From Candidatus Eiseniibacteriota bacterium (GTDB lineage: Bacteria; Eisenbacteria; RBG-16-71-46), in assembly GCA_903921835.1 (NCBI GenBank), contig CAIXRL010000296.1:1-41058 (forward strand): a stretch of DNA of 41,058 bases. Direction: 5' to 3'. The notes below the pieces were generated by a model, which saw only the letters and a list, made by a program, of their open reading frames with translations, made no database searches and was not told the DNA's origin. How positions within the stretch are numbered: position 1 is the first letter of the stretch; every line of letters begins with the position of its first letter. This document shows positions 9,339 through 38,103 of this stretch, one piece after another. Both the position numbers and the translations under genes were made by a program.

Positions 9339-9931
9339 TGAGCACGACGGCGACGGGATCCGCACGACGACGGCTGAAGCCGGCGCTGCTCACTCGGCGC
9401 GAGCTCGCCGCGCTGCTCCACGTGGTCCCGATGACGATCACGAAGTGGGAACAGGCGGGGATGCCGATCGCGACGCGTGGTCGGAAGGGCAAGCCGTCGC
9501 GTTATCGGGAGACGGTCGTGCGGTCGTGGCTCCAGCAGCGAGAGGAGGACGCTCAGCGGCCCGGGTCGGTCACGGACGTGGCCAAAGAAAAGGCGAGGCT
9601 CGCCAGAGAACAGGCCGACCTCACGCTACAGACGCGCATGATGCGCGCGCGGGATCTCTTGCCCCGCGAAGAGGTCGAACGCGCGTGGACCGCAGAGGTC
9701 GCCGCGGTGCGCGCGAAGCTGCTGGCGTGGCCGGCGACGCTCGCCGACCAGGTGCACCGGGCGGCCGTGCTCGACGGCCTGGGCGGCGTCGAGCGCGTGC
9801 TCAATGAGGCCATCCGGAACGTGCTGCGCGAGTTGGCCCATGCGAAGGCGAGCACGCCGGAGTCGGAGGCAGAACCGACCGACCTCTTGACTGTCCAGCC
9901 TACTGCGCCACCTGCCGAGGTGTTTGCGTGA
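9338..9931 (+). CDS. Terminase small subunit (Nu1-like, N-terminal HTH)
   Basis: GTG at 9338 overlaps the HNH stop. LTRRELAALLHVVPMTITKWEQAGMPI...GKPSRYRETVVRSWL resembles the Nu1-type HTH. It is followed by a coiled coil and lies directly upstream of, and coupled (GTGA) to, the large terminase. Confidence 0.7.
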   Translation: MSTTATGSARRRLKPALLTRRELAALLHVVPMTITKWEQAGMPIATRGRKGKPSRYRETVVRSWLQQREEDAQRPGSVTDVAKEKARLAREQADLTLQTRMMRARDLLPREEVERAWTAEVAAVRAKLLAWPATLADQVHRAAVLDGLGGVERVLNEAIRNVLRELAHAKASTPESEAEPTDLLTVQPTAPPAEVFA

Positions 9932-11805
9932 CCACGACCCAGGCGCTTCTTCGCACCGTTCGAAAGGGCTGGCTTCCGCCGCCAGACCTGAACGTCTCGA
10001 CGTTCGCCGACCAAGAACTCGTCGTGACGACAGGCCCGCTCGCCGGCACGCACTGGCAGACCGCGTTCGCGCCGTATCAGCGCGGGATCCTGGATGCGTT
10101 CCACAAACCAGGCGTTGAGATCGCCGTGGTGATGGGCAGCTCGCAGTGGGGCAAGACGAGCTGCGCGGTGTGCGTCGTCGCCTTCCACGTCGCGCACGAT
10201 CCGTGCCCCATCCTGATCGTGGAGCCGACCGTGGACCCGATGGCGAAGGACTTCGCAAAGAATCGCCTCGACCCGGTCATCGCGGCGAGCCCCTTGCTGC
10301 GCGAGACCGTGTCGAAGAGGCGCGCGAAGGATGCCAGCAACACGACGCTGGCAAAGACGTTCCGCGGCGGGTCGCTCTCGATCGGCGGCGCGAATTCTGC
10401 GGCATCACTCGCCGCCCGGTCCATCCGGTTGCTCGTGCTCGACGAGGTTGATCGGTATCCGCCTGAGTTACCTGGGGAAGGATCAACACTCGCGATCGCG
10501 TTCAAGCGGACCGCGGCCTATCGGCGGCGCCGACGAATCCTGATGCTCTCATCCCCCACGCTGAAAGGCGCGCCGATCGACGTGTGGTTTCATCGCGGCG
10601 ACCAGCGGCGCTACCACGTCCCGTGCCCGTCGTGCGGCGTGATGCACCCGTTCCAGTGGAAGCAGGTCCACTGGACGCACGACGATCCGGCGACGGCGCG
10701 GCTGCACTGCCCAGCCTGCGACTACACGATCGACGATGCGGAGCGCGTGGCCATCCTCGCGCACGGCCAATGGATTCCGGACTGCCCGGAACGCGCTGAC
10801 AAGTCGGTCGTGTCGTTTCACGTTTGGGAGGCGTATTCACCGCTCTCCTCCCTGGCCGAAATCGTGACGTCGTTCCTGCGGGCTCGAGTGGCTCAGAAGG
10901 CCGGGGATCGGAGCGAGATGCACACCTGGCAGAACACGACACTCGGCGAGCCGATCGAACTGGACCAGGGCGATGGCGTCGAGCCGCACGTGCTGCTGAT
11001 GCGGCGCGAAGCCTACAGTGAGGGCGTCGACATTCCAGACGGCGGTTGCGTCCTGACGATGGGCGTGGACACCCAGGACGACCGCCTCGAGGCACTCGTG
11101 ATCGCCTGGGGGCCAGGGGAGGAATCCTGGATTGTCGACCGACAGACGCTCCCCGGCGATCCGGAAGGCCCGGAGCCGTGGACGATGCTCGACGAGCTGC
11201 TGGTGCGTGAATACCGGCACGCGCTCGGGTTCAGGCTGGCGATCCGTGCGACCTGCGTCGACTCGGCCGGGCACCGCACGACGTTCGTGTACGACTACGC
11301 CAGGCGTAAGGCTGCGCGCCGCGTCTTTGCGATCATCGGCCGCGACGGGCAGCGCCCGATCGTCTCGTCGCCGTCTCCACGGCGCTGGGGGCGCGAACAA
11401 CGCGAGGTGCCGCTCTACACGATTGGGACCGACGCGGCGAAGTCACTGATCGTCTCGCGGCTCTCGTTGACGGAGAAGGGCCCGGGTTTCGTCCATATGC
11501 CTCATGCCGAGTGGGCGGACGAGGAACTCGCGGCGCAGCTCACGAGCGAGCGGCTCGTGACGGTGTGGTCGAAGGGGATTCCCTCGCAGGTCTGGCGGAA
11601 GGTGCGGCCGCGAAATGAAATGCTCGACGCGTTCGTCTACGCGGTGGGCGCGCTCAGGCTGATCCACCCGAATCTGCCGGTGGTCGCGGCGCAGCTCGCG
11701 GCGATGGCTGGGACCGCCACGGTGCAGCCACTCCCACGCCAGGCTGCGCCGTCGCCGCCCCCGCAATCGCGGCGCATCGCGCGCAGTGGGTATCTCGGGC
11801 GATAA
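9928..11805 (+). CDS. Terminase large subunit, lambda gpA family
   Basis: 625 aa. It has a Walker A-like SSQWGKTS and LLVLDEVDRYP, and the overall gpA-type layout including the CPSCG...CPAC zinc motif. Confidence 0.93.
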   Translation: MTTTQALLRTVRKGWLPPPDLNVSTFADQELVVTTGPLAGTHWQTAFAPYQRGILDAFHKPGVEIAVVMGSSQWGKTSCAVCVVAFHVAHDPCPILIVEPTVDPMAKDFAKNRLDPVIAASPLLRETVSKRRAKDASNTTLAKTFRGGSLSIGGANSAASLAARSIRLLVLDEVDRYPPELPGEGSTLAIAFKRTAAYRRRRRILMLSSPTLKGAPIDVWFHRGDQRRYHVPCPSCGVMHPFQWKQVHWTHDDPATARLHCPACDYTIDDAERVAILAHGQWIPDCPERADKSVVSFHVWEAYSPLSSLAEIVTSFLRARVAQKAGDRSEMHTWQNTTLGEPIELDQGDGVEPHVLLMRREAYSEGVDIPDGGCVLTMGVDTQDDRLEALVIAWGPGEESWIVDRQTLPGDPEGPEPWTMLDELLVREYRHALGFRLAIRATCVDSAGHRTTFVYDYARRKAARRVFAIIGRDGQRPIVSSPSPRRWGREQREVPLYTIGTDAAKSLIVSRLSLTEKGPGFVHMPHAEWADEELAAQLTSERLVTVWSKGIPSQVWRKVRPRNEMLDAFVYAVGALRLIHPNLPVVAAQLAAMAGTATVQPLPRQAAPSPPPQSRRIARSGYLGR

Positions 11806-12099: not shown

Positions 12100-12315
12100 A
12101 TGCCTCAGTCAGCCGCCGACCTGCAAACGGAACTGCTGGCGCTGCGCGCTCGGAAGCTGGCCGCGGCCGGCATCCGCTCCACACAGTTCGCCGACCAGAT
12201 GACGGCCTTCGACCATCCCGACCTCGACCAACGCATTGCCGCCATTGAGCGCCAGCTCGCCGTGTCAGGCCGGGGCTCGACCACGCGCTACGCCGCGACC
12301 TCGAAGGGACTCTGA
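12100..12315 (+). CDS. gpW-like head-tail joining protein, copy 1 (71 aa)
   Basis: ATG at 12100 follows ggagg. The size, the position after the large terminase and the core IRSTQFADQMTAF...L..RIAAIERQL resemble lambda gpW (VATVQKDGRRVEFT...L..YIAELE). Confidence 0.6.
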   Translation: MPQSAADLQTELLALRARKLAAAGIRSTQFADQMTAFDHPDLDQRIAAIERQLAVSGRGSTTRYAATSKGL

Positions 12316-12317
12316 CC

Positions 12318-12896
12318 GTGCCTGGTCTCGACATTGCGCGCGCGGAGGCGATCACGGGCTGGATGAGTCCTGGCGAGCTGACCTGGCTCGCCGCGCACGC
12401 CCTCGGCACGCGCACTATCATCGAAATTGGGGCCTTCTGCGGTCGGTCCACGCGAGCGCTCGCCGATCACTGCCCGGGCGTGGTCTATGCGGTGGACCCG
12501 TGGGAAGGCTACGCGAACGACGACGGTAGCCAGGCGAAGTGGATCCTCGAGCAAGGTCCCGGGAGTTGGGTCGCGATCGTCGAGGCGTTCAATCGCAACC
12601 TCGCCGACCACATCGCGTCGGGGCGCGTCGTGCCGGTGCGTCTGCGAGCCTTCGACGCCTACCCAAAGATCAGCGTGCAGCAGTCCTTCCGCGCAGACCT
12701 CGTGTTCGTGGATGGGGACCACCGCTACGAAGCGTGCAAGCAGGACATCCAGCTCTATCGAGACCTCGTCGCGCCGGGTGGCGTGCTCGCGGGCCACGAC
12801 TACGGCAGGAACGACTGGCCGGGCGTCAAGCGCGCGGTCGACGAGCTGCTCGGAAAGGTCAACCACCGCGAGTCAATCTGGTGGATGCGGCGATAA
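12318..12896 (+). CDS. Class I SAM-dependent methyltransferase (O-methyltransferase/Methyltransf_24-like)
   Basis: IIEIGAFCGRST (motif I) and LVFVDGDHRYEACKQDI...GGVLAGHDY are typical of this fold. Confidence 0.8.
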   Translation: MPGLDIARAEAITGWMSPGELTWLAAHALGTRTIIEIGAFCGRSTRALADHCPGVVYAVDPWEGYANDDGSQAKWILEQGPGSWVAIVEAFNRNLADHIASGRVVPVRLRAFDAYPKISVQQSFRADLVFVDGDHRYEACKQDIQLYRDLVAPGGVLAGHDYGRNDWPGVKRAVDELLGKVNHRESIWWMRR

Positions 12897-12972: not shown

Positions 12973-13314
12973 ATGGCTTTTGCACTGACCGCACGACAAC
13001 TCGCCCTCGACGCGATCACCTGTGACCGCGTGTCTCTGCACAGCGGCGACCCGGGCGCGGATGGAGCGAGTTACATCTCGGCGGGTGGCCGGGTGGCCGC
13101 GACGTTCAACGCCGCGAATGCTTCGGCCGAGCGTGTGCTGAACGCCGACGTGAACTTCACAGGTTTGGCGGCGAATGCGTCCGTCACCCATTTCGGCGTG
13201 TGGTTGAACGCCGGCACGGTCTACCGCTGCGGCGCGGCGCTGACTGGGGACCAGACGGCCAATGCCGCGGGGGAGTACACTTTGAAAGGTACGACCACGA
13301 AAATTACCGCGTAG
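12973..13314 (+). CDS. Hypothetical beta-rich protein (113 aa)
   Basis: A strong RBS (aaggagagag) precedes ATG at 12973. The protein is Ala/Gly/Thr/Asn-rich with no enzymatic motif. Confidence 0.6.
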   Translation: MAFALTARQLALDAITCDRVSLHSGDPGADGASYISAGGRVAATFNAANASAERVLNADVNFTGLAANASVTHFGVWLNAGTVYRCGAALTGDQTANAAGEYTLKGTTTKITA

Positions 13315-13316
13315 CC

Positions 13317-13895
13317 ATGAGTGCGCGAGTCGGCATCGGCATTCCACTGGTGGCGCTTCGTGCCAAGTCGCTCGTGAGTCTGTGTCAGAACCTGATTCAG
13401 ACGCACGCCGAGATGGCCTTGCTCATCGTCGAGGGGGCGTACATTCAGCACAACCGGGCGTTGCTGGTGAAGCACGCGCGGGAGCAGGGATGTACGCACC
13501 TGTTCTTCATGGATCACGACATGGTGTTCCCGGCCGACACCGTGGACCGGCTGCTCGCGCACGACAAAGACATCGTGGCGTGCGCCTACAACATGCGTGG
13601 GCGATTTCCGCTCGAAAGCGTGGTAACGCTCCACGATGCTGCCGGACAGCGGGTACCAGATGCCGACCTCCCCGGGGAGCTGTTTCGGTGCAGTTCGCTC
13701 GGGTGTGGGGTGATGCTGATCAAAATCCCGGTGTTCGAGCGCATCGCGCAGCCGTGGTTCCACCTGCACATTGAGGGATTCGACCTCCTCTCGACCGAGG
13801 ACGTATGGTTCTGTAACCAGGCACGGCAAGCCGGAATTGACATTTGGTGTGACCCGACGATTCCGGTCCAGCACCAGGGCGAGTTTCTGTTCTAG
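13317..13895 (+). CDS. GT-A fold glycosyltransferase (family 2-like)
   Basis: ATG at 13317 lies within listed ORF 13200..13895. Motifs: LFFMDHDMVF (DxD-like) and STEDVWFCNQARQAGIDIWCD (ED..FC motif). Confidence 0.7.
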   Translation: MSARVGIGIPLVALRAKSLVSLCQNLIQTHAEMALLIVEGAYIQHNRALLVKHAREQGCTHLFFMDHDMVFPADTVDRLLAHDKDIVACAYNMRGRFPLESVVTLHDAAGQRVPDADLPGELFRCSSLGCGVMLIKIPVFERIAQPWFHLHIEGFDLLSTEDVWFCNQARQAGIDIWCDPTIPVQHQGEFLF

Positions 13896-13907
13896 GGAGG
13901 TGTCCGC

Positions 13908-14336
13908 ATGGCGACTGCACGAGTGACCGGTAACGTCACGTCGAACGTCACGACCTGGGCCGACGTGACGGGGCTGTCGTTTGCCTTGGACGCGAACACC
14001 AACTACTACTTCCGGTTCGTGCTGCACCATTCCAGCGCGGCAACCACGACGGGCATCCGGTTCGGCGTGTCGGGGCCAGCGTCTCCGACGGCGCTGCGCG
14101 TGGGTGGAATGGTGCCCATCAGCACGGTGGCGGCCAACTTCGGGTCGCAGACGGCGTACGATACAGCCATCTTCGCCTCGACGACCGGCACGACGGTCGC
14201 TGTCATGACCATCATCGAAGGGTTGATTCGGAACGCGGGAAACACCGGCAATCTCGCGTGCCGTGTGGCGTCCGAGGTGGGGGCAGCCACGGTGACGGTC
14301 CTGGCGAACTCACACGGTGTCGTGCTGCCCATGTAG
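13908..14336 (+). CDS. Hypothetical beta-sandwich-like protein, paralog of the N-terminal domain of the next gene
   Basis: Over its full 142 aa it aligns by eye to residues 1-145 of the 14343..16163 product (RVTGNV...YYFRFVLHHSS...GIRFGVSGPA..ALRVGG versus RRVTGDV...IYFRYVVHVTS...GVCFAINGPAGTLRVGT). Confidence 0.6.
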   Translation: MATARVTGNVTSNVTTWADVTGLSFALDANTNYYFRFVLHHSSAATTTGIRFGVSGPASPTALRVGGMVPISTVAANFGSQTAYDTAIFASTTGTTVAVMTIIEGLIRNAGNTGNLACRVASEVGAATVTVLANSHGVVLPM

Positions 14337-14342
14337 CCGCGC

Positions 14343-16163
14343 ATGGCTGACACCACCACGATCCGCCGTGTCACGGGCGACGTCAATCTCGATGCGACCG
14401 CTGGGACGCCGGCGGAGATTACCGATCTCAACTTTGCGGTCTTCTCGGGCGAGACGATCTACTTCCGCTACGTCGTCCACGTCACCTCCGCCAGCAATAT
14501 CGGGGTGTGCTTCGCCATCAACGGTCCTGCCGGCACGCTTCGCGTCGGCACGCGGCAGCCGTCCAGTGCGACAGTATGCTCCGGCGCGTCGAGTAGCACG
14601 CTCAACGCCGTCATCTTCGCGGAGACGGCCGGCGGAACGGTCCAGCGCATGTGCCTCGTCGAGGGCGTGTTCATCGCCACGGCCGATGGCACACTGAGCC
14701 TGAAAGCCTGCAACGAAGGATCGGGCGCACTCACCCTCTACGAGAACAGCACTGGGGAGTTTGTCTACACCGAGCGTATTCCGATCGGCTACGGCGTTCC
14801 GGCGCTGACACTCGGCGCGACCGGCGAAGGCCGCAGAGTGAGCTACAGCGCGACGGCGACAGTGGCGCTCACGCTGGCACTGGTGGGCGTGGGCGCGGCG
14901 CTACATGCTGGCTCCGGCAGTAGCAGCCTGACGCTGGGCGCGGCCGGCGTAGGCAAGGCTGTCCATTACGGGGCGGGCGCGCCGGCACTCACGCTCAGCG
15001 CGACGGGTGAAGGTGCGGCTCCGGCCGCGGCCGCGAATAACGGATATGGCGTCCCCGCGCTGACCCTGAGCGCAACGGGTGCTGGCGTCTCCGTCCGCTC
15101 TGGATACGGCGTGCCTGCCCTCACGCTGTCCGCCGCGGGCACGGGTGACGCTCCGCCACTCACGGGCTCCGGCGTCGTCAGCCTGACGCTGGCCACGTCT
15201 GGTGTAGGGCGTGCGGAGCATCGAGGCTACGGGACCTCAGCGCTGACGCTCACGGCTGCCGGCGTCGGAGACATGCCGCCGGCGACCGGCTATGGCACGA
15301 GCGCGCTATCGGTGTCGGCGACGGGCGCGGGTCAGACCGTCACGTCAGGGTCAGGCGCGTCCGCCCTCACGCTGACCGCGGCCGGCGTCGGTGTGTCTCC
15401 TCGGTACGGCGGTGGCACCTCCGCGCTGATGCTGGCGACGACTGGCGCTGGTGTGTCGTCTCGCTTCGGCGTGGGCACCGTCCCGCTGTCGCTGTCCGTC
15501 GGTGGCACTGGCCGCCGCGCCGCGTACGGGAGCCACGCGCTGCCGCTCACGCTGGGCGTCGAAGGCGCAGGATGGTCCGCGCGTGCCGGGTGCGGCGCAC
15601 CTGATCTGTCGCTGGTCGCGGCGGGAGAGGGTGAGGCCCCAGCGGTCGGTGTGCGGGACGGCTCCGGCGTCGTCGTGCTGACGCTGGCGGCGCAGGGCGA
15701 AGGACAGTCTCCCTGCGCGGGTAGCGGGGCTCCGGCGCTGTCTTTGGTGGCGGGCGGGTTTGGGGCGCACGTCTCCACCGGTGTCGGCTCTGTCGCCCTT
15801 GATCTCGACGCCGGTGGCGTGGGAGCACAACCAGCGGTCGCCCCGCATGCTGGCTACGGCACGGTTACGGTCTCCCTGGATGCCACTGGCGCAGGAGAGG
15901 CACTATGCGCTGGCGACGGCGTGGTGTCCCTCGTGCTTGGAGTGGTCGGCTCTGGCGGCGGAATTCCTAAAGGATCGGGCGTCGTCACCCTGACGCTGGC
16001 CTGTCATGGTCACGGACCGGTGGCCTTCCTCGCAAGCGCCAGGGTCTACGTGGTCCCGGATGAGCAGCGTCGCCTCGAGATGGACCCAGAGTCGCGGCGG
16101 TACGTCGTGCTGCGGGAGCAGCGCCAGTTCACGGTCGGTCCGGACGAGTCCTCGCGAGGATAG
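14343..16163 (+). CDS. 606-aa repeat protein: N-terminal beta-sandwich-like domain, 20 tandem ~20-aa Gly/Ala/Ser/Thr-rich repeats and a short charged tail
   Basis: The repeat consensus is roughly G-[YS]-G-x-[PS]-A-L-T-L-[ST]-A-x-G-x-G-x(4-8). I counted 20 units between residues 149 and 562. The tail holds an internal duplication (RVYVVPDEQRR / RRYVVLREQRQ). Confidence 0.75.
   Translation: MADTTTIRRVTGDVNLDATAGTPAEITDLNFAVFSGETIYFRYVVHVTSASNIGVCFAINGPAGTLRVGTRQPSSATVCSGASSSTLNAVIFAETAGGTVQRMCLVEGVFIATADGTLSLKACNEGSGALTLYENSTGEFVYTERIPIGYGVPALTLGATGEGRRVSYSATATVALTLALVGVGAALHAGSGSSSLTLGAAGVGKAVHYGAGAPALTLSATGEGAAPAAAANNGYGVPALTLSATGAGVSVRSGYGVPALTLSAAGTGDAPPLTGSGVVSLTLATSGVGRAEHRGYGTSALTLTAAGVGDMPPATGYGTSALSVSATGAGQTVTSGSGASALTLTAAGVGVSPRYGGGTSALMLATTGAGVSSRFGVGTVPLSLSVGGTGRRAAYGSHALPLTLGVEGAGWSARAGCGAPDLSLVAAGEGEAPAVGVRDGSGVVVLTLAAQGEGQSPCAGSGAPALSLVAGGFGAHVSTGVGSVALDLDAGGVGAQPAVAPHAGYGTVTVSLDATGAGEALCAGDGVVSLVLGVVGSGGGIPKGSGVVTLTLACHGHGPVAFLASARVYVVPDEQRRLEMDPESRRYVVLREQRQFTVGPDESSRG
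14787..16028. repeat. Coding tandem-repeat array (20 diverged units of about 54-72 nt)
   Basis: Derived from the protein periodicity. The DNA copies are diverged, so this is an old or selected array rather than a recent slippage product. Confidence 0.8.
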
Positions 16164-16172
16164 GAGAGGGTC

Positions 16173-16475
16173 ATGCCCATCAAGCGCACGATGATGCCCA
16201 CGTTCGACCCGGAGAGCGCCAAGGATTACGGCGTGCTGTGGGCGAGGTGGCTAGAGGCTGGCGAGACGATCACCGCCTCGACGTGGACACTGCCCAGCGG
16301 TCTCGTGCTGGACGAGGACCACGAGGACGACTTCAGCGATACCGAGACGCGGGTCTGGATACGGGCTGACGAAACGGTCGTGATTGGCGAGAACTACGAC
16401 CTCACGAATCACATCGTCACGTCCGCCGGACGTGAAGAGGACCAGACCATCACCATCCCGGTCCGGTCCAGGTGA
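16173..16475 (+). CDS. Hypothetical small beta-rich phage protein (100 aa)
   Basis: The RBS aggagaggg precedes ATG at 16173. The pattern DP..AKDYGVLWARWL..GETITASTW...G...Y.LTNHIVTSAGREEDQTITIPV resembles small Ig-like phage structural or adaptor proteins, but I cannot name the family. Confidence 0.6.
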   Translation: MPIKRTMMPTFDPESAKDYGVLWARWLEAGETITASTWTLPSGLVLDEDHEDDFSDTETRVWIRADETVVIGENYDLTNHIVTSAGREEDQTITIPVRSR

Positions 16476-17374
16476 CGTCCGTCCCCAGGACGGTCAACGT
16501 CGTCTGCCGTAACTGGCAAGACGATCGGGTCCTGCCGCGTTTCGCTCGGTATCTCGCTGACGGTCTCGGCTGGACACTGGCCGCGACGCCCTGCCCGCCG
16601 GAAGACGTCACCGTGTACTACCTGATGGGTTACTTCGAATCGCAGATGTTCACGGCGTGGCCCAGCGCCAGGCCGACCGCCTCGCTCTTTACGCACCGCG
16701 AAGAAGCGCCAGCCGGCAACGCGAAGGCCGCGCTCTACGACGAGATTGCGTGTCTCGTTGACCTGCGGGTCGCGATGTGTCGGCGCTACGCTGAGCCGCT
16801 GCACGCGATCGGACCGACGATTCAGCCTCCGCTGCCAGTCGAGCGAGACCGCTTTACGATCGCGCCGCCGCCGCGACGCCCCCGCCCCGTCGTCGGTCTG
16901 AGTGGATTCACGTACCACAACGCTCGCAAGGGTGAGGACCTGGTCCGTGGCGTCGTCGCGTCCTCGGTTGGAAGGCGCGTCGACTGGATAGCCAGTGGAC
17001 GCGGATGGCCCACGACCATGCGGAGGTACTCCTGGCAGGAGATGCCGCGGTTCTATCAGGGCCTGAACGTGCTCGTGTGCCCGAGCCGCGTCGAGGGCGG
17101 CCCAATGACGGTCCTCGAGGCGCTCGCCTGCGGCGTGCCCGTGGTCGTGCCCGTCGGCGTCGGCATCCTCGACGAGCTGCCCGACATCCCCGGCATCCAT
17201 CGGTATCCGCGTGGCGATCGCGCGGGCCTGGTCGCGGCACTCGGGCGTGCGGCCTTCCCAATCAACGCGCCGGACCGCGACGCGCTACGCGCCGCCACGG
17301 CGGGCCATACCGTCGAGGCGTGGTGCGGCGCGCACGCCAAGGGCTTCTCCGATGTCGTCGAGGCGAGGGGCTGA
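16472..17374 (+). CDS. GT-B fold glycosyltransferase (GT1/GT4-like)
   Basis: GTGA overlap at the start. The C-terminal motif is VLVCPSRVEGGPMTVLEALACGVPVVVP (the E..EG.P....EA.A.G.PV signature). Confidence 0.75.
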   Translation: MTSVPRTVNVVCRNWQDDRVLPRFARYLADGLGWTLAATPCPPEDVTVYYLMGYFESQMFTAWPSARPTASLFTHREEAPAGNAKAALYDEIACLVDLRVAMCRRYAEPLHAIGPTIQPPLPVERDRFTIAPPPRRPRPVVGLSGFTYHNARKGEDLVRGVVASSVGRRVDWIASGRGWPTTMRRYSWQEMPRFYQGLNVLVCPSRVEGGPMTVLEALACGVPVVVPVGVGILDELPDIPGIHRYPRGDRAGLVAALGRAAFPINAPDRDALRAATAGHTVEAWCGAHAKGFSDVVEARG

Positions 17375-17754
17375 TGGCGTTCGAACCGATCTACTACGCC
17401 CTGCACTGCCAGCCTATCGTCGGCCGATCCTTCAAGGTGGGGCACAACGTGCTGATCGACGGGCATGCGCAGATCACGATCGGCGACGACGTCTTCCTCG
17501 GCCACAACGTCATGCTGCTCACAGGCGGGCACGACCCAGGGCAGCGCGGCCCCGCCAGGCAGGCCGCGGTCCGTGCGGCGCCCATCACGATCGGTGACGG
17601 TGTCTGGATCTGCTCTGGCGCGATCGTCTGCCCGGGCGTCGCGATTGGTGCACACGCCGTTGTCGGACCGGGAGCGGTCGTCATGCGGAACGTGCCCGCC
17701 TGCACCATCGTCGGCGGCAACCCTGCGCGGAAGATTCGGAGGCTGGCGCCATGA
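17374..17754 (+). CDS. Hexapeptide-repeat (left-handed beta-helix) acyl/acetyltransferase
   Basis: TGATG junction at the start. Motifs: IGDDVFLGHNVMLLTGGHD...ITIGDGVWICSGAIVCPGVAIGAHAVVGPGAVVMRNVPACTIVGGNPARKI, as in maltose/galactoside O-acetyltransferase-like enzymes. Confidence 0.85.
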   Translation: MAFEPIYYALHCQPIVGRSFKVGHNVLIDGHAQITIGDDVFLGHNVMLLTGGHDPGQRGPARQAAVRAAPITIGDGVWICSGAIVCPGVAIGAHAVVGPGAVVMRNVPACTIVGGNPARKIRRLAP

Positions 17755-18482
17755 GCACTCGTGGCGTGTATGTCGTGGCGTTCGGTCTCCCAGCCAGGGC
17801 CTGCGCCGATCGCCTGATGCGCAGCGTCAAGCTCCACATGCCAGAGATCCCGATCGCGCTCTGCGCCGCGGAACCGATCGGCCCAGAGGATGTCCTCCTC
17901 GCGCAAGCCGACACCGACGTCGGCGGGCGGCGCGCGAAGCTGCTGGCCTACGAGCTCGCGCCGGCAGAGTGGCAGTCCGTGCTCTATCTTGACGCGGACA
18001 CCGAGCTCGTCGCGCCGGTCTATCCGCTCTTCGAATGGGTCGAAGACGGCTGGGAGTTCGTGATCTGTCGCGACGTCGGCGAGACGCTGCATTCGTTCGC
18101 ACGGAAGGGCAACCTGCAGGAGCTCCGCGAGGTCGAGGCTGCCGTCGGCACCTTGTTCGCGGCGCAGTACAACGGCGGCGTGTGGGCCTTCCGGCGCTGT
18201 CCTGCCGTCGCTCGGTTCATGGCGCGCTGGCGCGTGGAGTGGGAGATTCACGCGCAACGCGACCAAGGCGCGTTGATTCGCGCACTCTACGCCGAGCCGG
18301 TCCGAATCCTCCTTCTTGGCTCTGAATGGAACACCTTTCCGAAATACACGCCGACGGTGACGACCGCTGGGATCCTGCACTATCCGATGGAGGCTCGGCG
18401 TTGGGCTGGGAAGTTGCCCGGGCGCATCGACAACGCCGCGGCGTGGGCGGTCGTGCGGAGATGGGAGGCGAGCCGTCCGTGA
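17751..18482 (+). CDS. Nucleotide-diphospho-sugar transferase (GT8-like GT-A fold)
   Basis: ATGA overlap at the start. Motifs: VLYLDADTELV (DxD) and QYNGGVWAF. Confidence 0.65.
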   Translation: MSTRGVYVVAFGLPARACADRLMRSVKLHMPEIPIALCAAEPIGPEDVLLAQADTDVGGRRAKLLAYELAPAEWQSVLYLDADTELVAPVYPLFEWVEDGWEFVICRDVGETLHSFARKGNLQELREVEAAVGTLFAAQYNGGVWAFRRCPAVARFMARWRVEWEIHAQRDQGALIRALYAEPVRILLLGSEWNTFPKYTPTVTTAGILHYPMEARRWAGKLPGRIDNAAAWAVVRRWEASRP

Positions 18483-18931
18483 CGATTCTCAACCTGGGGA
18501 CCGGAAATCGCGTGATAGGAAACGCCTGTAATCACGACCTGGCCAAGCACCGCCCAGAAATTGATGTGGCCTGGGATCTGAACGAGTTCCCATGGCCGTG
18601 GCCCGACGCGAGCTTCGATCTCATCGTCGCCAGGTCAGTCTTCGAGCACTTGCGCCACGACCTGGTGCAGTCCCTCAATGAATGCTGGCGTCTCCTGCGG
18701 CCCCACGGGGAACTGTTCATCAAGCTGCCGTACTGGCAATCAGACGTCAGCCATCAGGACCCGACGCATCGCTGGTTCTTCAGCCTCCGAAGCCTCGACC
18801 AGTTTGACCCCGACACGAAGCGCGGACAGGAGTACGCGTTCTACACGCCGCGTAAATGGAAGGTCGTCACGGCACCGCAACTGAACAGCGCTGGCTCGTC
18901 CCTGATCGCGAAGCTGGAGGTGCGCAAGTGA
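18479..18931 (+). CDS. Class I SAM-dependent methyltransferase (Methyltransf_11/23-like)
   Basis: GTGA overlap at the start. Motifs: ILNLGTGN (motif I), FDLIVARSVFEHL and LRPHGELFIKLP. Confidence 0.7.
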   Translation: MTILNLGTGNRVIGNACNHDLAKHRPEIDVAWDLNEFPWPWPDASFDLIVARSVFEHLRHDLVQSLNECWRLLRPHGELFIKLPYWQSDVSHQDPTHRWFFSLRSLDQFDPDTKRGQEYAFYTPRKWKVVTAPQLNSAGSSLIAKLEVRK

Positions 18932-20103
18932 TGACGCTGCAGCTCGAGGCGGACCAGGCGACGCTGCGCCGTGACCTGGCGGCCCGCTGTCCCGACTATC
19001 CGCGCCCACCGAAGGTCAAGGCGCAACTGCTCGACTACCAGATGATGGCGCTGTTCCTGCTCGCGCGTGACCAGAACCGACCTGGGGCACGCATTCTCGA
19101 GATTGGCACCGGGCACGGCAGTTCGGGCTGGCTCTTGTCGAGAGCCGCGCCGTTGGCGCGCATCACGTCGCTGACGACGTCGGTTGCTGAGCGGGGGATC
19201 GCCGAGCGGCTCTGGCGGAAGGGGGGCTGCCGAAACATTGTGGTGCGCGTCGAGTCATCCTGGGACGTCCTTGCGCGCGACACCGACGCGTGGGATCTGA
19301 TCTTTATCGATGGCGACCACAACCGGATTGCACGCGACCTGCCCTGGTTCAATCGCCTGCGCGAAGGCGGGCTCCTGCTCTGCCATGACTACTCGCCGCA
19401 GGACAGCCGGTCGCCGAGCGGTATCGTGTTCGCGGAACTCAACGCGATGGCGGAGCGCCTCGGCCGACCGTTCGACGTGCGCGTGATCGACGAGGGCAAG
19501 GTCGGGATGGTCGGGTTCTACTGCGGGCCTGGAGAGACGGTCGACTCCCCACCCCAGCCGGCCCAGGCCGCGACGACGCGCCCACTCTCGTCAGGTGCGG
19601 GCCTCGTGCTGCGGCGGGAAGAACCGCAGACGCGGCAACGCGCCCTCGCGAGTCGGTTGGGCGTCTCGGTGTCCGACGACTGGACGCTCCTCTGGCCGCG
19701 GACGCTGTTCGTCGCCGAGGGAGCGATCGTCCCGTGGGACCTCGTCGGCGCCGGGCTCGAGCTCCTGGCACGCTGGGACCTCGCCGCGCCGCTCGCGCCA
19801 GATGCCAAGCTCGCGCAGGACCTCGGCACGCCAGACGATCGCGACCGCACGCGCGCACTTGTGGGGGACCTCCGCATGCCGACCTATGCGCCGGACCTGT
19901 TGTTCGTCCGTGATTCCGACGCCGGCCGTGCGTGCCTCGAGCGGTGGCGCATCGAATGCGACGGTAGTGATGAGCGCCTCGCCTTCCAGCGGGCGCTCTC
20001 GGCCGTCAAGCCGCGCTTCTGCGCGTTGCCGAGGATCTGGCTGGCGGCCCAGGCCGAGCGTGACGCGATCGACCGGCGGTCCGGCGCCAGGAGTCGGCCA
20101 TGA
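18931..20103 (+). CDS. Class I SAM-dependent methyltransferase (O-MTase-like) with a ~190-aa C-terminal domain of unknown function
   Basis: ATG at 18931 (TGATG junction; GTG at 18928 is an alternative start). ILEIGTGHGSS and LIFIDGDHNRIARDLPWFNRLREGGLLLCHDY parallel the 12318 methyltransferase. Confidence 0.7.
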   Translation: MTLQLEADQATLRRDLAARCPDYPRPPKVKAQLLDYQMMALFLLARDQNRPGARILEIGTGHGSSGWLLSRAAPLARITSLTTSVAERGIAERLWRKGGCRNIVVRVESSWDVLARDTDAWDLIFIDGDHNRIARDLPWFNRLREGGLLLCHDYSPQDSRSPSGIVFAELNAMAERLGRPFDVRVIDEGKVGMVGFYCGPGETVDSPPQPAQAATTRPLSSGAGLVLRREEPQTRQRALASRLGVSVSDDWTLLWPRTLFVAEGAIVPWDLVGAGLELLARWDLAAPLAPDAKLAQDLGTPDDRDRTRALVGDLRMPTYAPDLLFVRDSDAGRACLERWRIECDGSDERLAFQRALSAVKPRFCALPRIWLAAQAERDAIDRRSGARSRP

Positions 20104-21119
20104 ACGCCCCGCGCCTGGTCTCGTGCTACTTCGGGTCCGGCGCTGCCGGTCAATGGCCACGCCTGGCGCGCGTGCTCGAGCTCTCCGCGCGCCGGCATTG
20201 TCCCGAGTGGCAGGTCGACGTGCGGGCGATCGTGCCGACGCGTCTCTCGGTGCCGACGCTCACCGCGGCATACGCCCAGAACACGCAGAAGCTGGAATGG
20301 TGGGCGCAGGTCATCGCGGCGGCTCCGGACGGCGATCGCGTGGCCCTGCTCGACGCTGACACGATGGTGCTCGCATCCCTCGACGCCGTATGGGAGCACC
20401 CGTTCGACCTGGCCTACACCACGCGCGCGGAGGGCCATCCGTTCCCGATCAATGCGGGCGTGATCTTCGTGCGAGTCACCGAACAATCGCGAGCCTTCAT
20501 GGTGTCCTGGCGAGACGAGAACCGTCGAATGCTCGTCGACAGCCAGCGCCACAACACGTGGCGCAAGAAGTTCGGCGGGATCAACCAGGCCGCGCTCGGC
20601 TGCCTACTGCCCCAAGCCGACCACCTGGCGTCGCTGTGCGCGTTGCCGTGCGCCGAGTGGAACTGCGAGGACTCGACCTGGGAGACCTTCACGCCGGGCG
20701 CGACGCGGATCGTCCATATCAAGAGCCACCTTCGCCGCGCGATCTTCCTGGGAGTGGCCGGCTCCGGCTCGCTCGCTCGACTGGTCACGCTGTGGCGCGA
20801 GCGTGAGCGAGAGGCGCTGGCCGATCTGCGGTCCCCTGGGCGCCACCAGGTCATGACGGCCCGCCAGGAGGAGGCCGTCCAACCCTCGGCGCAGAATGGT
20901 GCGCCGATCGCGCCGCCTCCAATCCCGACTCCGCGCCCTCACCTCCAGGCGCGCCCGTTCCCTATGCGGCGCCGTGGACGGCCTCGCGGTCCAGGGACGA
21001 TCGCCACCAACGTGCGGATCCCGCAGTCCACGTACGACGCCTATTGCCGTCGCGCCACGGCGGCGGACAAGCCACTGGCCACCGTGCTCCGAGAAGCCCT
21101 CGTGTCTAAGGCGCTCTAA
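20100..21119 (+). CDS. GT-A-like nucleotide-sugar transferase fused in frame, via a Pro-rich linker, to a ribbon-helix-helix-like C-terminal tail
   Basis: ATGA overlap at the start. Motifs: VALLDADTMVL (DxD) and INAGVIFV. The last ~50 aa (RGRPRGPGTIATNVRIPQSTYDAYCRRATAADKPLATVLREALV) look like a CopG/Arc-type RHH. An in-frame ATG at 20964 could also express the tail on its own. Confidence 0.65.
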   Translation: MNAPRLVSCYFGSGAAGQWPRLARVLELSARRHCPEWQVDVRAIVPTRLSVPTLTAAYAQNTQKLEWWAQVIAAAPDGDRVALLDADTMVLASLDAVWEHPFDLAYTTRAEGHPFPINAGVIFVRVTEQSRAFMVSWRDENRRMLVDSQRHNTWRKKFGGINQAALGCLLPQADHLASLCALPCAEWNCEDSTWETFTPGATRIVHIKSHLRRAIFLGVAGSGSLARLVTLWREREREALADLRSPGRHQVMTARQEEAVQPSAQNGAPIAPPPIPTPRPHLQARPFPMRRRGRPRGPGTIATNVRIPQSTYDAYCRRATAADKPLATVLREALVSKAL

Positions 21120-21174: not shown

Positions 21175-21390
21175 ATGCCTTCCGAGATGGCATACACCGA
21201 GGCCGACCTGAACTCGATTCGGACGGCGCGCCTCCGGGGCGTGCGGACGGTGCAGATTGCCGATCGCGCGACCACGTACACCTCCGATGCGGAGATGCGC
21301 CAGGTCGAACAGGACATCACGCGCGCGCTCGCCGCTATGGCCAGCACGCGGCGGAAGCGCTCCTACGGCGTCTCGAGTAAGGGCTTCTGA
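21175..21390 (+). CDS. gpW-like head-tail joining protein, copy 2 (71 aa)
   Basis: It lies directly upstream of the portal gene, as in lambda. The core VRTVQIADRATTYTSDAEMRQVEQDI resembles lambda gpW. Its length (216 nt) and its C-terminal ...Y..(T/S)SKG(L/F) ending are shared with the 12100 copy. Confidence 0.6.
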   Translation: MPSEMAYTEADLNSIRTARLRGVRTVQIADRATTYTSDAEMRQVEQDITRALAAMASTRRKRSYGVSSKGF

Positions 21391-21392
21391 CG

Positions 21393-22949
21393 ATGGGCAT
21401 GCTGGGCAGCACGCGCGCGTGGTTCCGCCGTGTGGGCAGCGAATCCGGCGCTCCCGTCCCCACCGTCCGAAACTCCGGGTCGTCTCCCTACGAGGCGGGC
21501 GCGTACACGCGCCGCACGCGGGGATGGAATGCCCCCACCACCAGCGCGAATCAGGCCATTCTCGCCTCGCTCTCGACGCTGCGCGACCGCTCTCGCGCGG
21601 CCACGCGGAACGACGGGTACGCCAAAGGCGTGATCGACAAGCTCGTCTCGAACATCATCGGGACCGGGATCAAGCCATTGTCGCAAGCGGAGGATCCGAA
21701 GTTCCGGCGGGACATTCAGGCGCTCTGGCTGCGCTGGACGTACGAGAGCGATGCGGATGGACTGCTCGACTTCGAGGGTCAACAAGGGCAGGCGGTCAGA
21801 ACATGGCTGGAAGCCGGCGAGGCCTTCGGGCGCATCCGGTTGCGCCTGCCCGCTGACGGACTCTCGGTGCCTCTGCAGGTCCAGGTCCTGGAGCCGGAAC
21901 TGTGCCCCTACCAATACAACATGTTTTCGAGCGGGCTGAAGGTGCGGGCCGGGATCGAATTCAATCTGATCGGTAGTCGATCGGCGTATTACTTCTACCC
22001 GTCCAGGCCAGAGCTGGACGACTTCGACCCCTCGCAACTGCGACGCCTCGATGCCGCCTCAGTGATCCACCTGTATGACCCGTTGCGGCCAGGCCAGTTG
22101 CGCGGCATCCCTCACCTGACGCAGGCCCTGGTCAACCTCTACGAGCTCGACCAGTACGACGACGCCACGCTGGTGCGGCAGAAGCTCGCCAACATGTTCG
22201 CCGGATTCATCAAGCGCCCCGCCGACGTGGGCGACCTCGCCGAGCTCGATACACTCACCGGCCTGAAGGCGGACACTCATGACGGCAAGCCGCTGGCGTC
22301 GTTGGAGCCGGGGCTGATGCAGGAACTCGACCCGGGCGAGGAGGTGCAGTGGTCCAATCCGCCCGACGCAGGCCCGGGCTATCCGGACTTCATGCGCCAG
22401 CAACTCTACGGCGTCTCTGCGGCAACCGGCGTGCCGTACGAGGTGCTGACGGGAGACATGCGGGGCGTCAACGATCGCGTGGTGCGGGTCCTGCTCAACG
22501 AGTTCCGCGGTCGCGTGGCTGCTTGGCAGCACAGCATTGTGGCCCAGGCGTTCTGCCGCCCGATCTGGCGTGCCTGGATGGACCGAGTAGTGCTCTCTGG
22601 CGCGCTGGCCATCCCGCGGGCTGAGTACCTCCGCAATCCCGAGCGCTGGACTGCTGTGAAGTGGACACCGCCGCGGGTGCCATACATCCAGCCGGTCCAG
22701 GACATCGAAGCGCAGAAGGCCGCTATTCGCTCTGGACTCACCTCGCGGAGCGCGACGGTCAGCGAGTACGGCGAGGACGCCGAGGCGATCGACACCGAGC
22801 AGGCGATCGACAACCAGCGGGCCGACGCGCTCGGCCTCACGTACGACACCGATCCGCGGAAGGTGTCGGTCGCGGGACTCACGCAGGTGCAGCCGCCCGG
22901 CAGCGTGCTGCCGGATGACAGTGGCAACAGTGAAGGGACACAGCCATGA
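21393..22949 (+). CDS. Portal protein, lambda gpB family
   Basis: 518 aa. The N-terminal region RTRGWNAPTTSANQAILASLSTLRDRSRAATRNDGYAKGVIDKLVSNIIGTGIKP is typical of lambda-type portals, and the gene order fits. Confidence 0.92.
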   Translation: MGMLGSTRAWFRRVGSESGAPVPTVRNSGSSPYEAGAYTRRTRGWNAPTTSANQAILASLSTLRDRSRAATRNDGYAKGVIDKLVSNIIGTGIKPLSQAEDPKFRRDIQALWLRWTYESDADGLLDFEGQQGQAVRTWLEAGEAFGRIRLRLPADGLSVPLQVQVLEPELCPYQYNMFSSGLKVRAGIEFNLIGSRSAYYFYPSRPELDDFDPSQLRRLDAASVIHLYDPLRPGQLRGIPHLTQALVNLYELDQYDDATLVRQKLANMFAGFIKRPADVGDLAELDTLTGLKADTHDGKPLASLEPGLMQELDPGEEVQWSNPPDAGPGYPDFMRQQLYGVSAATGVPYEVLTGDMRGVNDRVVRVLLNEFRGRVAAWQHSIVAQAFCRPIWRAWMDRVVLSGALAIPRAEYLRNPERWTAVKWTPPRVPYIQPVQDIEAQKAAIRSGLTSRSATVSEYGEDAEAIDTEQAIDNQRADALGLTYDTDPRKVSVAGLTQVQPPGSVLPDDSGNSEGTQP

Positions 22950-37200: not shown

Positions 37201-38103
37201 GCGCGCGGCCCGCTTGGGGATGCGATCGCGGCCGGGACCGCCACGCTGCGCGTCAATCTCGATGGCGTCGAGGACGTGGGCAACGGCACCGGAGTGGTCC
37301 TGACCGACCTGTACGACCAGGCCATTTGGCTCCTCGAGCAACTCGTGCTCCAGAACTATCTGACGGGCGACTGGACGTGCCCGCCGACCTTTCCCGGCAC
37401 GAGCGTGTGCCAGATCAACCGATCCTCCTTCCGCGCGGTCGGCGCGCAGCGGCGGCTGGAGATTGCCGGCGGCTACGTCGGCGCGTGGGTGGTTGGCGCG
37501 GAAGGCGAGCGCGTGAGCGCCCAGCAGTGGATTCAGCGGATCTGCCAGAGCGGGCAATTCCGCATCGGGCCGAATCGCTTCTGGCAGATCAAGGCGTGGG
37601 CGCTCAATGCGGCGCTCGTGACGGCCATGCTCCCGCACGTCCGTGAGTTCCACGCCGTCGACAAGGACTCGGGCGATCCGGTCCCTCACCCTGACCACCT
37701 GGCGAACGTGCTGCCCTATACCTTCGGTCCGCCGCTCGACTCAGGCACGGATTGGCTGGGCAGCGCGGAACTGAAAGACGCCGCGTCGATCACCGCCTAC
37801 GGCCAGGAGTATCCCGGCGACCAGCTCTCGCTCTACTGCCTCCGGTCGCAGGCGCTCGCCGCGCACGCCGCCGGCCAGGCGATGCTCTACTCGCGGCTCA
37901 TCCCGCACACGATCGAGCCGGTGGGCGATCTGCGGTTCACAGCGCTGGACCTCGGCGACGCGTTTCTCTACGACCACTACCGCGGCCTCGGAAGCGACGG
38001 CTACAGCGAGCGGCCGTTCGTCGTGATCGGGTGGACGTTTCTGTCGCCACAGCGGCAGATTCAGCCCGAATGTTTGGACCTGGGGGACATCCTGACCCCC
38101 TAA
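34294..38103 (+). CDS. Host-specificity/central tail fibre protein (gpJ/GTA-type) with two N-terminal discoidin (F5/8 type C)-like domains and a PKD-like domain
   Basis: AKAFDGNLVGTDGSFWSSN...YSDDGTIWTD and AFDADASTLWNC...SNDGGATWTQ are discoidin-like. APVVEAGPDQTVTL...LTYLWTVVSSPGG...LRLTADDGELTGDDDVTITV is PKD-like. The remaining ~850 aa form a large tail-tip domain. Confidence 0.85.
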   Translation: MSAHAYWRLLVTATSGGGGSSAAVCELEMFDTSGAALCSGGTPSASSYYGDVNTYGPAKAFDGNLVGTDGSFWSSNGMGGGGEWVAYQFASAVDVASFRLTGRVGYTLQYPTVFKLQYSDDGTIWTDATGSLSATWDEYARRRCSFPVGSPASGLYCMWRVRALSTQSGTTPSCAKLELRSAMGGSDQTDATNGIADSLWGTQYPSLAFDADASTLWNCNVTNVGWLGFAFSTPLSIVEATWTVRNDAYYTQGPSSCVLEASNDGGATWTQIGNTLSPATWAQGATQTLTFVGATNEAPVVEAGPDQTVTLLTTATATLAGSATDDGLPDPPAALTYLWTVVSSPGGSTVTFTDDTDPETDVEFDTLGEYVLRLTADDGELTGDDDVTITVAAPPPARFTQVGADIAWQTAIAARFTQVGVEVAYIADPCEAPPDGEDLTTATSGPLLFSTYDPLGTGALQAYDEVSAPDDADYYGGRKWPWLMSLGPVRRALSDHKGNYEVGRFDVSFADPERRLRQLLATAPGKYTPSREVAAYLVSDAGRRAKVTPHLVAWGLVEGSPKYNSDLSVGLSCRDVIGGGNRGWGLDGEALIPKRLIAAPEFPEARPEVQTLGVPFPLGILGDAGSATGAPTLTGNTDKDRGYIADISGDAAGWGDLPASPAPPTNLVLTETANALADMGTDAHSAVRFFVQVFPFDVNGVMGNPLPFVSWDAGADITLSGRAYQLDASWDASPDAVKYRAVLGGSWYGVGYNQYIETSGTSCTFTKSPDWVPELIVTPSMITPGAQVIPDWGDGPVYYGVAAIMADGDTAITTHGYQGQGSPFRRPRRVEWEAVALSLGYRVYRRGPIGTWTRQWDVAAGVLMLDDPLDDSTGVIIAGVSPPKGSVAPIYVGDVTIDGQTWRELLVAGCAISDITSWAYDDGSTVTWDSGAGTDFLIPGAAGWADRFGAPYRDLVGADGVTRRRTVIYARGPLGDAIAAGTATLRVNLDGVEDVGNGTGVVLTDLYDQAIWLLEQLVLQNYLTGDWTCPPTFPGTSVCQINRSSFRAVGAQRRLEIAGGYVGAWVVGAEGERVSAQQWIQRICQSGQFRIGPNRFWQIKAWALNAALVTAMLPHVREFHAVDKDSGDPVPHPDHLANVLPYTFGPPLDSGTDWLGSAELKDAASITAYGQEYPGDQLSLYCLRSQALAAHAAGQAMLYSRLIPHTIEPVGDLRFTALDLGDAFLYDHYRGLGSDGYSERPFVVIGWTFLSPQRQIQPECLDLGDILTP

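Follow-up and report, generated by a model that had tools for sequence, protein, structure and literature searches.

Beads-on-a-string fibres have so far been seen only in the phages GP4, Sf14, and Bas63. Cryo-electron microscopy of Bas63 revealed an immunoglobulin (Ig)-like collar ring at the connector, from which a "rope" extends (PMC12609058). In GP4 the rope is a protein of its own, in Bas63 it forms an N-terminal extension of the collar, and dimers of the whisker protein or gp80 sit on the rope "like beads on a string", with five dimers in GP4 and two in Bas63 (PMC12609058). The rope threads the grooves of the monomers, and its strands complete the incomplete β-sandwiches of whisker/gp80 (PMC12609058). 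Here, a 606-amino-acid (aa) protein was analysed that is encoded in a 41,058-nucleotide (nt) stretch of DNA assigned to Candidatus Eiseniibacteriota bacterium (GenBank contig CAIXRL010000296.1; hereafter, the window), together with its 142-aa paralogue encoded immediately upstream. The 606-aa protein is probably the single-chain rope of a beads-on-a-string fibre of the GP4 fibre-I/Bas63 whisker type.

In the Ralstonia podophage GP4, fibre I consists of gp80 dimers, the rope, and a 15-fold gp77 adaptor, and PDB entry 8jou contains 10 gp80 chains and 3 gp77 chains. The GP4 genome (MH638294) encodes gp80 (140 aa), gp79 (325 aa, annotated as "virion-associated"), gp78 (568 aa), and gp77 (93 aa), in this order. 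The bead–rope–collar fibre of GP4 and Bas63 is already known; what the window would add is the setting in a lambda-like siphophage, the length of the rope, its TNF-like head with a conserved free paralogue, and an associated glycosyltransferase.

Putative bead, rope, and collar genes in the window

The genes of the putative fibre module and the parts of the 606-aa protein are arranged as follows.

12973–13314, + strand: Gp80-family "bead" (whisker/fibre I) protein, 113 aa (PF23140, phrog_240)
13317–13895, + strand: small glycosyltransferase A (GT-A)-like glycosyltransferase, 192 aa, with a DHD motif (phrog_1574, E=3.5e-23; phrog_12406 glycosyltransferase, E=3e-5)
13908–14336, + strand: free-standing TNF/C1q-like knob protein, 142 aa (predicted fold, Foldseek, family profile)
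14343–16163, + strand: whole gene of the 606-aa protein
14343–14780, + strand: its N-terminal TNF/C1q-like knob ("head"), aa 1–146 (paralogy, predicted fold, Foldseek)
14787–16031, + strand: its rope region of 20 units, aa 149–563, with the core G[SY]GxxALTLxAxGxG (phrog_19041)
16032–16163, + strand: its charged C-terminal tail, aa 564–606, with the stop codon (mini-repeats of ~10 aa, R-x-hydrophobic-x-V)
16173–16475, + strand: Gp77-family Ig-like "collar" (fibre-tail adaptor) protein, 100 aa (PF23148)

The putative rope gene is flanked by a Gp80-family gene, whose match is weak but above threshold, and a Gp77-family gene. The bead protein matched PF23140 (Gp80, "podophage GP4 fiber I protein gp80") with E=1.2e-6 and 29.3 bits against a curated cut-off of 27, and phrog_240 with E=3e-17. 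The collar protein matched PF23148 ("GP4 fiber-tail adaptor gp77") with E=8e-18 and 65 bits (cut-off 27), matched PDB chain 8jou_D with E=0.021, and was 41% identical to gp27 of Gordonia phage Vasanti.

The order bead, putative rope, collar is common to the window and GP4 fibre I, although the two loci differ in several respects. The bead has 113 aa in the window and 140 aa in GP4, and the window rope starts with a 146-aa TNF/C1q-like head, whereas GP4 gp79 opens almost directly with repeats. Unlike in GP4, a free knob paralogue and a glycosyltransferase gene lie between the bead and rope genes. Moreover, the window virus is a lambda-like siphophage, whereas GP4 is a podophage. In the whisker/collar complex of the myophages Bas63 and Sf14 (PMC12609058, PMC11821841), the rope precedes the Ig-like collar domain on its N-terminal side. 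This polarity agrees with the window, in which the collar gene directly follows the tail-encoding end of the rope gene. The Bas63 rope, however, is a short collar extension that carries two dimers and no distal head, whereas the window rope is a separate protein of 606 aa with 20 units and a head.

Repeat array and charged tail

The preliminary description of this DNA, made from the letters alone, had proposed an array of 20 Gly/Ala/Ser/Thr-rich units whose DNA copies are diverged, followed by a charged tail with its own mini-duplication, and each of these claims was borne out. The array (aa 149–563) comprises exactly 20 units, with periods of 20 (14 times), 21 (three times), and 24 aa (three times). 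Its 15-aa core, G-[SY]-G-x-x-A-L-T-L-x-A-x-G-x-G, has six near-invariant positions: G1 is present in 19 of the 20 units, G3 in 18, L7 and L9 in 19 each, and G13 and G15 in all 20. The motif occurred 20 times in the array, whereas 2000 shuffled versions of this region contained it 0.2 times on average and at most three times. The composition of the array is 21% Gly, 18% Ala, 9.6% Ser, and 9.2% Thr.

At the DNA level, Tandem Repeats Finder detected no tandem repeat in the gene. The 45-nt cores were on average 57% identical (58% for adjacent cores), with 40% identity at third codon positions across core pairs, and the peptide cores were 52% identical. The unit DNA is therefore diverged, which indicates that the array is old and has been maintained at the protein level. 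A slippage artefact or recent DNA tandem repeat was ruled out by the same two results.

The tail (aa 564–606, ...ARVYVVPDEQRRLEMDPESRRYVVLREQRQFTVGPDESSRG) holds the mini-duplication. Comparable R-rich mini-repeat tails are present in GP4 gp79, in gp24 of Mycobacterium phage Mendokysei, and in loci L030, L027, and L013, and at the N-terminus of Vasanti gp28. We propose that the tail may serve as a collar-binding anchor.

The full 606-aa protein was modelled as a monomer with AlphaFold2 (AF2). The prediction was confident for the knob, with a predicted local distance difference test score (pLDDT) of ~85–97 over aa 11–140, and only low to moderate for the array, with a pLDDT of 50–80 at aa 150–400 and below 50 beyond aa 400 (predicted template modelling score [pTM] 0.43). 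The five models averaged a pLDDT of 47–62 and disagreed with one another, and the alignment of the array was shallow (11 homologues). Low confidence of this kind would fit a segment that becomes ordered on a partner, although it does not speak against a self-standing shaft and the alignment behind it is shallow.

Relationship to GP4 gp79

GP4 gp79 contains ~11 units of ~20 aa with the pattern GxGxxx(I/L)x(L/M)xxxGxG, followed by an R-rich tail (ERQLFVEDDSRTLVV...). It is a full-length member of phrog_19041 (E=1.8e-26), which is the only PHROG matched by the window array (E=3.4e-8). In addition, BLASTP of gp79 against the 606-aa protein gave 33.5 bits, compared with 17.1 ± 2.2 bits (maximum 28.5) for 1000 shuffles, which is ~7 standard deviations above the shuffled mean. 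An autocorrelation peak at a lag of 20 was found in the window array, gp79, the ropes of loci L012 and L007, and all ten homologues analysed, a comparison that left out homologue P0004. Sequence searches of the PDB with gp79 and gp78 returned nothing. The gene order, the virion-associated annotation, and the presence of ~11 units for 10 gp80 chains suggest that gp79 is the GP4 rope. With 20 units against ~11, the window rope would have about twice the bead capacity of the GP4 rope.

Relatives of the array and linkage to Gp80-like genes

Eleven database homologues matched the 606-aa protein, all through the array only, and their N-terminal domains are mutually unrelated. A gene for a protein of ~111–115 aa was found upstream of the homologue in five of the six contexts examined (L003, L005, L006, L010, and L011, but not L004), directly adjacent in four of them and one gene away in L003. 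Four of these five upstream proteins could be linked to Gp80, two by 65–78% identity to the window bead and two by weak or faint PF23140 matches; the L011 protein is related only to that of L005. In L003, L006, L013, L019, L020, and L023, a bead relative with 65–84% identity is encoded just upstream of a protein that carries the repeat motif of the window.

The linkage was further evaluated in IMG/VR, where a scan with the bead alignment yielded 67 loci, 36 of them distinct and with at least 1.5 kb of downstream sequence. An open reading frame (ORF) of at least 200 aa with strong 20–21-aa periodicity was present within 3.5 kb downstream in 15 of these 36 Gp80-like loci, compared with 3 of 150 other ORFs in the same loci. 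The periodic proteins share a layout of variable head, 20-aa repeats, and short tail, and they comprise several unrelated repeat sequences, all with a period of 20. Beads at least 70% identical to that of the window pair with the ALTL-type motif, and more distant beads pair with other motifs. A collagen-like fibre was considered and rejected, as the sole collagen match in the periodicity screen (L062, one of the 15) was a false positive with a different motif.

In L003, L012, and at least 14 IMG/VR loci, the bead or rope gene has a Gp77-like gene downstream of it. Furthermore, the small protein encoded downstream of homologue P0009 has a homologue in the ropes P0006 and P0011, where it forms a fused C-terminal domain. 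This fusion implies that the proximal end of the rope is its C-terminus, as in Bas63, and it agrees with the polarity of the window. In hhalign, Gp77-like proteins showed no relation to the downstream or fused domain of the L005 type, and we do not assign it to Gp77.

Similar gene sets are present in two cultured actinophages. In Mycobacterium phage Mendokysei, gp23 is Gp77-like, gp24 (annotated as "minor tail protein") consists of a head, about six 20-aa units, and tail repeats with the motif DRxAIV, and gp25 is Gp80-like. In Gordonia phage Vasanti, the Gp77-like gp27 is preceded by the 146-aa gp26, in which no Gp80 similarity was detectable. Vasanti gp28 (L008, 4986–6769, "minor tail protein") has the reversed polarity, with an N-terminal R-rich tail, 24-aa repeats, and a C-terminal head, and the gp27 gene abuts the tail-encoding end of gp28, as the collar gene does in the window. 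Vasanti gp26 and a 145-aa protein of L007 belong to phrog_644/26662 and not to Gp80; these proteins may represent a second bead family. As a separate observation, the rope proteins at 6436–10146 of L012 (1236 aa) and 5322–7883 of L031 (853 aa) have a large globular, enzyme-like domain between two repeat arrays, which would place a cargo in mid-fibre between two strings of beads.

Knob domain and its free paralogue

The claim that the 142-aa and 606-aa proteins form a paralogous pair sharing a β-domain was confirmed; BLASTP aligned residues 5–137 of the former with residues 9–138 of the latter (36% identity over 135 aa, E=2e-17). The AF2 model of the 142-aa protein is an all-β sandwich with a pLDDT of 94.9 and a pTM of 0.88. 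Foldseek against the PDB placed this fold closest to the TNF-like lectins PLTL (9ib6) and BC2L-C-Nt (2wq4), with probability 1.0 and a template modelling score (TM) of ~0.6, followed by 4-1BBL, C1q domains, and Pgp3 (likewise with probability 1.0), the tip of a Bdellovibrio fibre, and the phi812 spike knob. The head of the 606-aa protein retrieved the same set of TNF-like lectins, 4-1BBL, and C1q. In BFVD, the best matches (TM 0.72–0.87) were to phage proteins that are annotated as tail fibres or contain repeats of the collagen or lambda-Stf type. The AF2 and Foldseek results agree on the ten-strand jelly-roll β-sandwich of TNF/C1q-like knobs, and the shared domain is accordingly modelled as a TNF/C1q-like receptor-binding knob.

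The likeness of both domains to the N-terminal domain of BC2L-C (Burkholderia cenocepacia) and to PLTL (Photorhabdus laumondii) is one of predicted monomer folds, and sequence identity to these lectins and to C1q/TNF-like phage knobs is only 10–15%. The fold normally works as a trimer, in the lectins with a sugar site at the protomer interface, and the window domain may do so by analogy. In contrast to BC2L-C-Nt, PLTL, and the knobs of phage tail fibres, the domain in the window is N-terminal on a presumably single-chain rope and also occurs as a free protein.

A profile of both paralogues matched 3182 representative proteins at E≤1e-3. Among the matches listed, the knob domain is mostly C-terminal in proteins of 200–900 aa, sometimes in tandem pairs and sometimes beside lectin-like or glycosidase domains. 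Nearly the whole of P0012, P0013, P0015, and P0035 (~290–310 aa) consists of two tandem TNF-like knob copies, and P0014 and P0020 carry two tandem copies at the C-terminal end. Pairing of the knob domain is a recurrent theme beyond the window. Pfam has no family for the 142-aa or the 606-aa protein, and the knob domain is absent from it. PDB sequence searches with the two proteins gave chance matches only, and among GenBank phages neither megablast of positions 13000–17000 nor tblastn of the two proteins gave a match.

The age of the pair was assessed from its recurrence. Two unrelated phages, L007 and L012, contain the same succession of a GT-A-like glycosyltransferase gene, a free knob gene, and the gene for a knob-headed rope. 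L007 has matches to a family-A DNA polymerase and a uracil-DNA glycosylase among its replication genes; L012 has a low G+C content and a Mu-type portal, and its 1236-aa rope has a Gp80 gene upstream and a Gp77 gene downstream. Across the three phages, the free knobs are 63–71% identical and the heads 45–46% identical, and free knobs and heads are 28–41% identical to each other. This pattern indicates that the duplication predates the three unrelated phages and that both copies have been retained. A recent duplication was therefore rejected, the free and head lineages being older than the divergence of these phages. The free copy is kept in all three knob-headed cases, and ropes with other heads have no free head copy nearby.

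The 142-aa gene is preceded by a GGGAGG ribosome-binding site, and the collar gene also has a clear GGAGG-like site. At 14334–14345, the 142-aa gene ends just 6 nt before the ATG of its 606-aa neighbour, with no Shine–Dalgarno sequence in between, which suggests coupled translation of the two genes.

The last strands of the knob, aa 120–148 of the 606-aa protein (14700–14790, …NEGSGALTLYENSTGEF…), look like a repeat unit, and the knob-family hidden Markov model (HMM) gave extra partial matches inside the arrays of the window and L012 ropes. Composition may account for this likeness, which could otherwise be a clue to the way in which the head and the first bead are joined.

Proposed fibre

We propose that each ~20-aa unit of the rope would provide one short amphipathic β-strand (A-L-T-L-x-A, with Gly turns on either side), which would enter the groove of one Gp80-like monomer and complete its incomplete β-sandwich. 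About 20 monomers, or ~10 dimers, would thus line the chain, twice the number in GP4. The charged tail would lock the rope into a Gp77-like collar ring at the head–tail junction, and the N-terminal knob would form the distal tip and likely bind a surface glycan or receptor. The 142-aa protein would be an anciently diverged free knob, most likely co-assembling with the head into an oligomeric, probably trimeric, knob. Since a single-chain rope has a lone TNF-like head, free protomers would be needed for the usual oligomeric knob, and we prefer this reading of the pair. The conserved 20-aa period and the co-variation of bead and repeat motif lend indirect support, by analogy with the known fibres, to threading with one unit per monomer.

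Several observations weigh against this proposal. The PF23140 match of the bead is barely above threshold, and its BLASTP alignment with GP4 gp80 spans just a 21-aa SLH(S/T)GDPG motif. Because gp79 is absent from the PDB by sequence, its identity with the GP4 rope is inferred, and Pfam holds no rope family. An HMM of a single 20-aa window unit scored no better than shuffles on gp79, Vasanti gp28, and the L007 rope; this model was too short and penalised for composition, and it was replaced by the comparison of BLASTP with shuffles and by shared PHROG membership. For the 100-aa partner fused in P0006 and P0011, hhalign detected no likeness to Gp77 (probability 0.1%). Moreover, AF2 predicted β-hairpins at a pLDDT of 70–80 for units 5–12, so that a self-folding shaft is conceivable. 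Finally, threading and the one-unit-per-monomer stoichiometry are extrapolated from GP4 and Bas63, and the hetero-oligomeric knob is conjectural.

The hairpins bear on a different architecture, in which the 606-aa protein would form a self-standing homotrimeric fibre with a triple β-spiral or β-solenoid shaft and an N-terminal homotrimeric TNF-like knob, and the Gp80-like protein would decorate the particle separately. Trimers typically show this knob fold (TNF, C1q, BC2L-C-Nt, PLTL), which also occurs in collagen-repeat, lambda-Stf-repeat, and "tail fiber" proteins of other phages, and the units were predicted as two short strands split by Gly turns, with a pLDDT of 70–80 at aa 240–390. However, the pTM is 0.43, the last 200 residues have a pLDDT below 50, and just two hydrophobic positions are conserved per 20 aa. 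Linkage of the repeat protein to Gp80-like genes is tight and specific, its PHROG is shared with gp79, and rope heads are of many unrelated types. A homotrimer would also have no need for a conserved free head paralogue, which is nevertheless kept in all three knob-headed cases. On this evidence, we consider a homotrimeric fibre unlikely.

The adenovirus fibre and reovirus sigma1 combine a triple β-spiral shaft, with a repeat period of 15 aa, and a trimeric β-sandwich knob. The window protein recalls them in its short pseudo-repeats with Gly turns beside a jelly-roll knob. The likeness is no more than an analogy: the period in the window is 20 and not 15, the polarity runs the other way, neither sequence nor profile gives a match, and the syntenic bead and collar genes speak for another principle of assembly. 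The preliminary description had suggested "a beta-solenoid or fibre"; the 606-aa protein is almost certainly a fibre component of the virion, whereas a self-standing β-solenoid, though conceivable, finds no clear support in the AF2 model (pTM 0.43), and the Gp80/Gp77 context and the PHROG shared with gp79 point elsewhere.

Glycosyltransferase and neighbouring transferases

Further putative transferase genes surround the module.

12318–12896, + strand: Methyltransf_24
16472–21119, + strand: run directly after the collar gene, comprising a glycosyltransferase family 4 (GT4) protein (300 aa), a hexapeptide acyltransferase (126 aa), a 243-aa protein, Methyltransf_11, Methyltransf_24 (390 aa), and a 339-aa protein

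Eight sugar-modifying enzymes had been counted near the array. Six neighbours have family-level support as sugar or methyl/acyl transferases (Methyltransf_24, the GT-A-like protein, GT4, the hexapeptide acyltransferase, Methyltransf_11, and the second Methyltransf_24); the 243-aa and 339-aa proteins, which the preliminary description had included, gave no significant family match.

In L007 and L012, a homologue of the GT-A-like protein is encoded immediately ahead of the free knob (E ~1e-107 with a local HMM), and another lies ~4.5 kb downstream of the rope gene in L006. In none of the 67 IMG/VR loci did the HMM of the GT-A-like family, the only glycosyltransferase family searched for there, find a match within 5 kb of the Gp80-like gene. 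The ropes of L007 and L012 differ in repeat sequence, and the GT-A-like gene accordingly accompanies the knob and not the repeats.

These results bear on the suggestion that the Ser/Thr-rich array is an exposed, mucin-like acceptor for the neighbouring glycosyl-, methyl-, and acyltransferases and that glycosylation is its main purpose. Six to eight transferase genes lie around the module, the GT-A-like gene keeps its place beside the knob pair in three unrelated phages, and the array is 9.6% Ser and 9.2% Thr. However, the repeat family and bead occur in most relatives without a GT-A-like copy near the Gp80-like gene, the conserved positions are Gly and Leu rather than Ser or Thr, and the rope model would bury the cores in bead grooves. 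The conserved glycosyltransferase goes with the TNF-like knob, not with the repeats, and knob, bead, capsid, or a host glycan are equally possible targets. The array had earlier been called the obvious acceptor, a view for which we found no direct evidence, and we regard it as quite improbable; some link of the glycosyltransferase to the fibre module may nonetheless exist. That the array is a flexible, largely unstructured Gly/Ala-rich spacer holding the knob off the particle, with neither beads nor a repeat fold, is very improbable, because despite its 21% Gly and 18% Ala and low AF2 confidence over half of its length, a spacer would not keep six near-invariant positions and an exact 20-aa register while third codon positions fell to 40% identity between units, nor co-vary with the bead family.

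Genomic context

The window is of metagenomic origin and has a G+C content of ~67%, all its genes lie on the + strand, and its gene set is that of a lambda-like siphophage. The same two genes, for the 142-aa and 606-aa proteins, were called on the source contig (ENA ERZ18626952 scaffold_136, 44.5 kb), and nine contigs from several samples carry the identical 606-aa sequence. Other features of the window are as follows.

9928–11805, + strand: gpA-type large terminase
12100–12315, + strand: gpW/Ad1-like head–tail adaptor paralogue, 71 aa, at the upstream edge of the cassette and a tentative part of it
21393–22949, + strand: lambda-family portal
34294–38103, + strand: 1269-aa protein with F5/8-type-C (discoidin) and PKD-like domains, after the tape-measure and distal tail genes
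+ strand: ClpP-like protease, gpD-like decoration protein, E-type major capsid protein
+ strand: FII-like protein, Z-like protein, tape measure protein, GH108 endolysin

The interval between terminase and portal holds a ~9-kb block that is absent from lambda, and the 142-aa/606-aa pair lies inside it. This entire fibre-plus-transferase block is bracketed by two gpW/Ad1-like paralogues. The 71-aa protein at 21175–21390 is a phrog_2545 head–tail adaptor Ad1 (E=7.5e-16), and the product of 12100–12315 is 29% identical to it (E=5e-6). The paired copies could mark the acquisition of the block; alternatively, and speculatively as regards any relation to the fibre, the collar might dock onto the extra copy. 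The 1269-aa protein probably forms the central fibre or tip of the tail, which would give the virion another device for binding glycans.

Discussion

If the proposed rope is correct, the beads-on-a-string fibre would be widespread, with members in lambda-like siphophages, many uncultured phages, and the actinophages Mendokysei and Vasanti, where its proteins are annotated as "minor tail protein" or "hypothetical". The gp79 protein (phrog_19041) is a candidate for the GP4 rope gene product. The number of 20-aa units would set the length of the fibre, with ~8–25 units in ALTL-type relatives. The rope could carry functional heads, and an annotation rule would follow for several unannotated families, namely a protein with 20-aa periodicity encoded between Gp80-like and Gp77-like genes. 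This would end the misreading of such arrays as disordered linkers or as targets of glycosylation.

A broader picture can be drawn from these results, which we offer tentatively and consider doubtful as a whole. Ropes might be modular single-chain fibre cores in sipho-, podo-, and myophages, in which a 20-aa "ruler" recruits one Gp80-like monomer per unit and the distal heads are swappable (TNF-like, LamG-like, FN3-like, or β-helix domains, or inserted enzymes). A neck whisker might in this way become a programmable receptor-binding or enzymatic fibre, and in the knob-headed cases the head and two free paralogues might form a heterotrimeric, lectin-like knob modified by the syntenic GT-A glycosyltransferase. 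For the knob-headed ropes in particular, we hypothesise that a single-chain fibre may gain a normally trimeric, lectin-like tip through a free paralogue.

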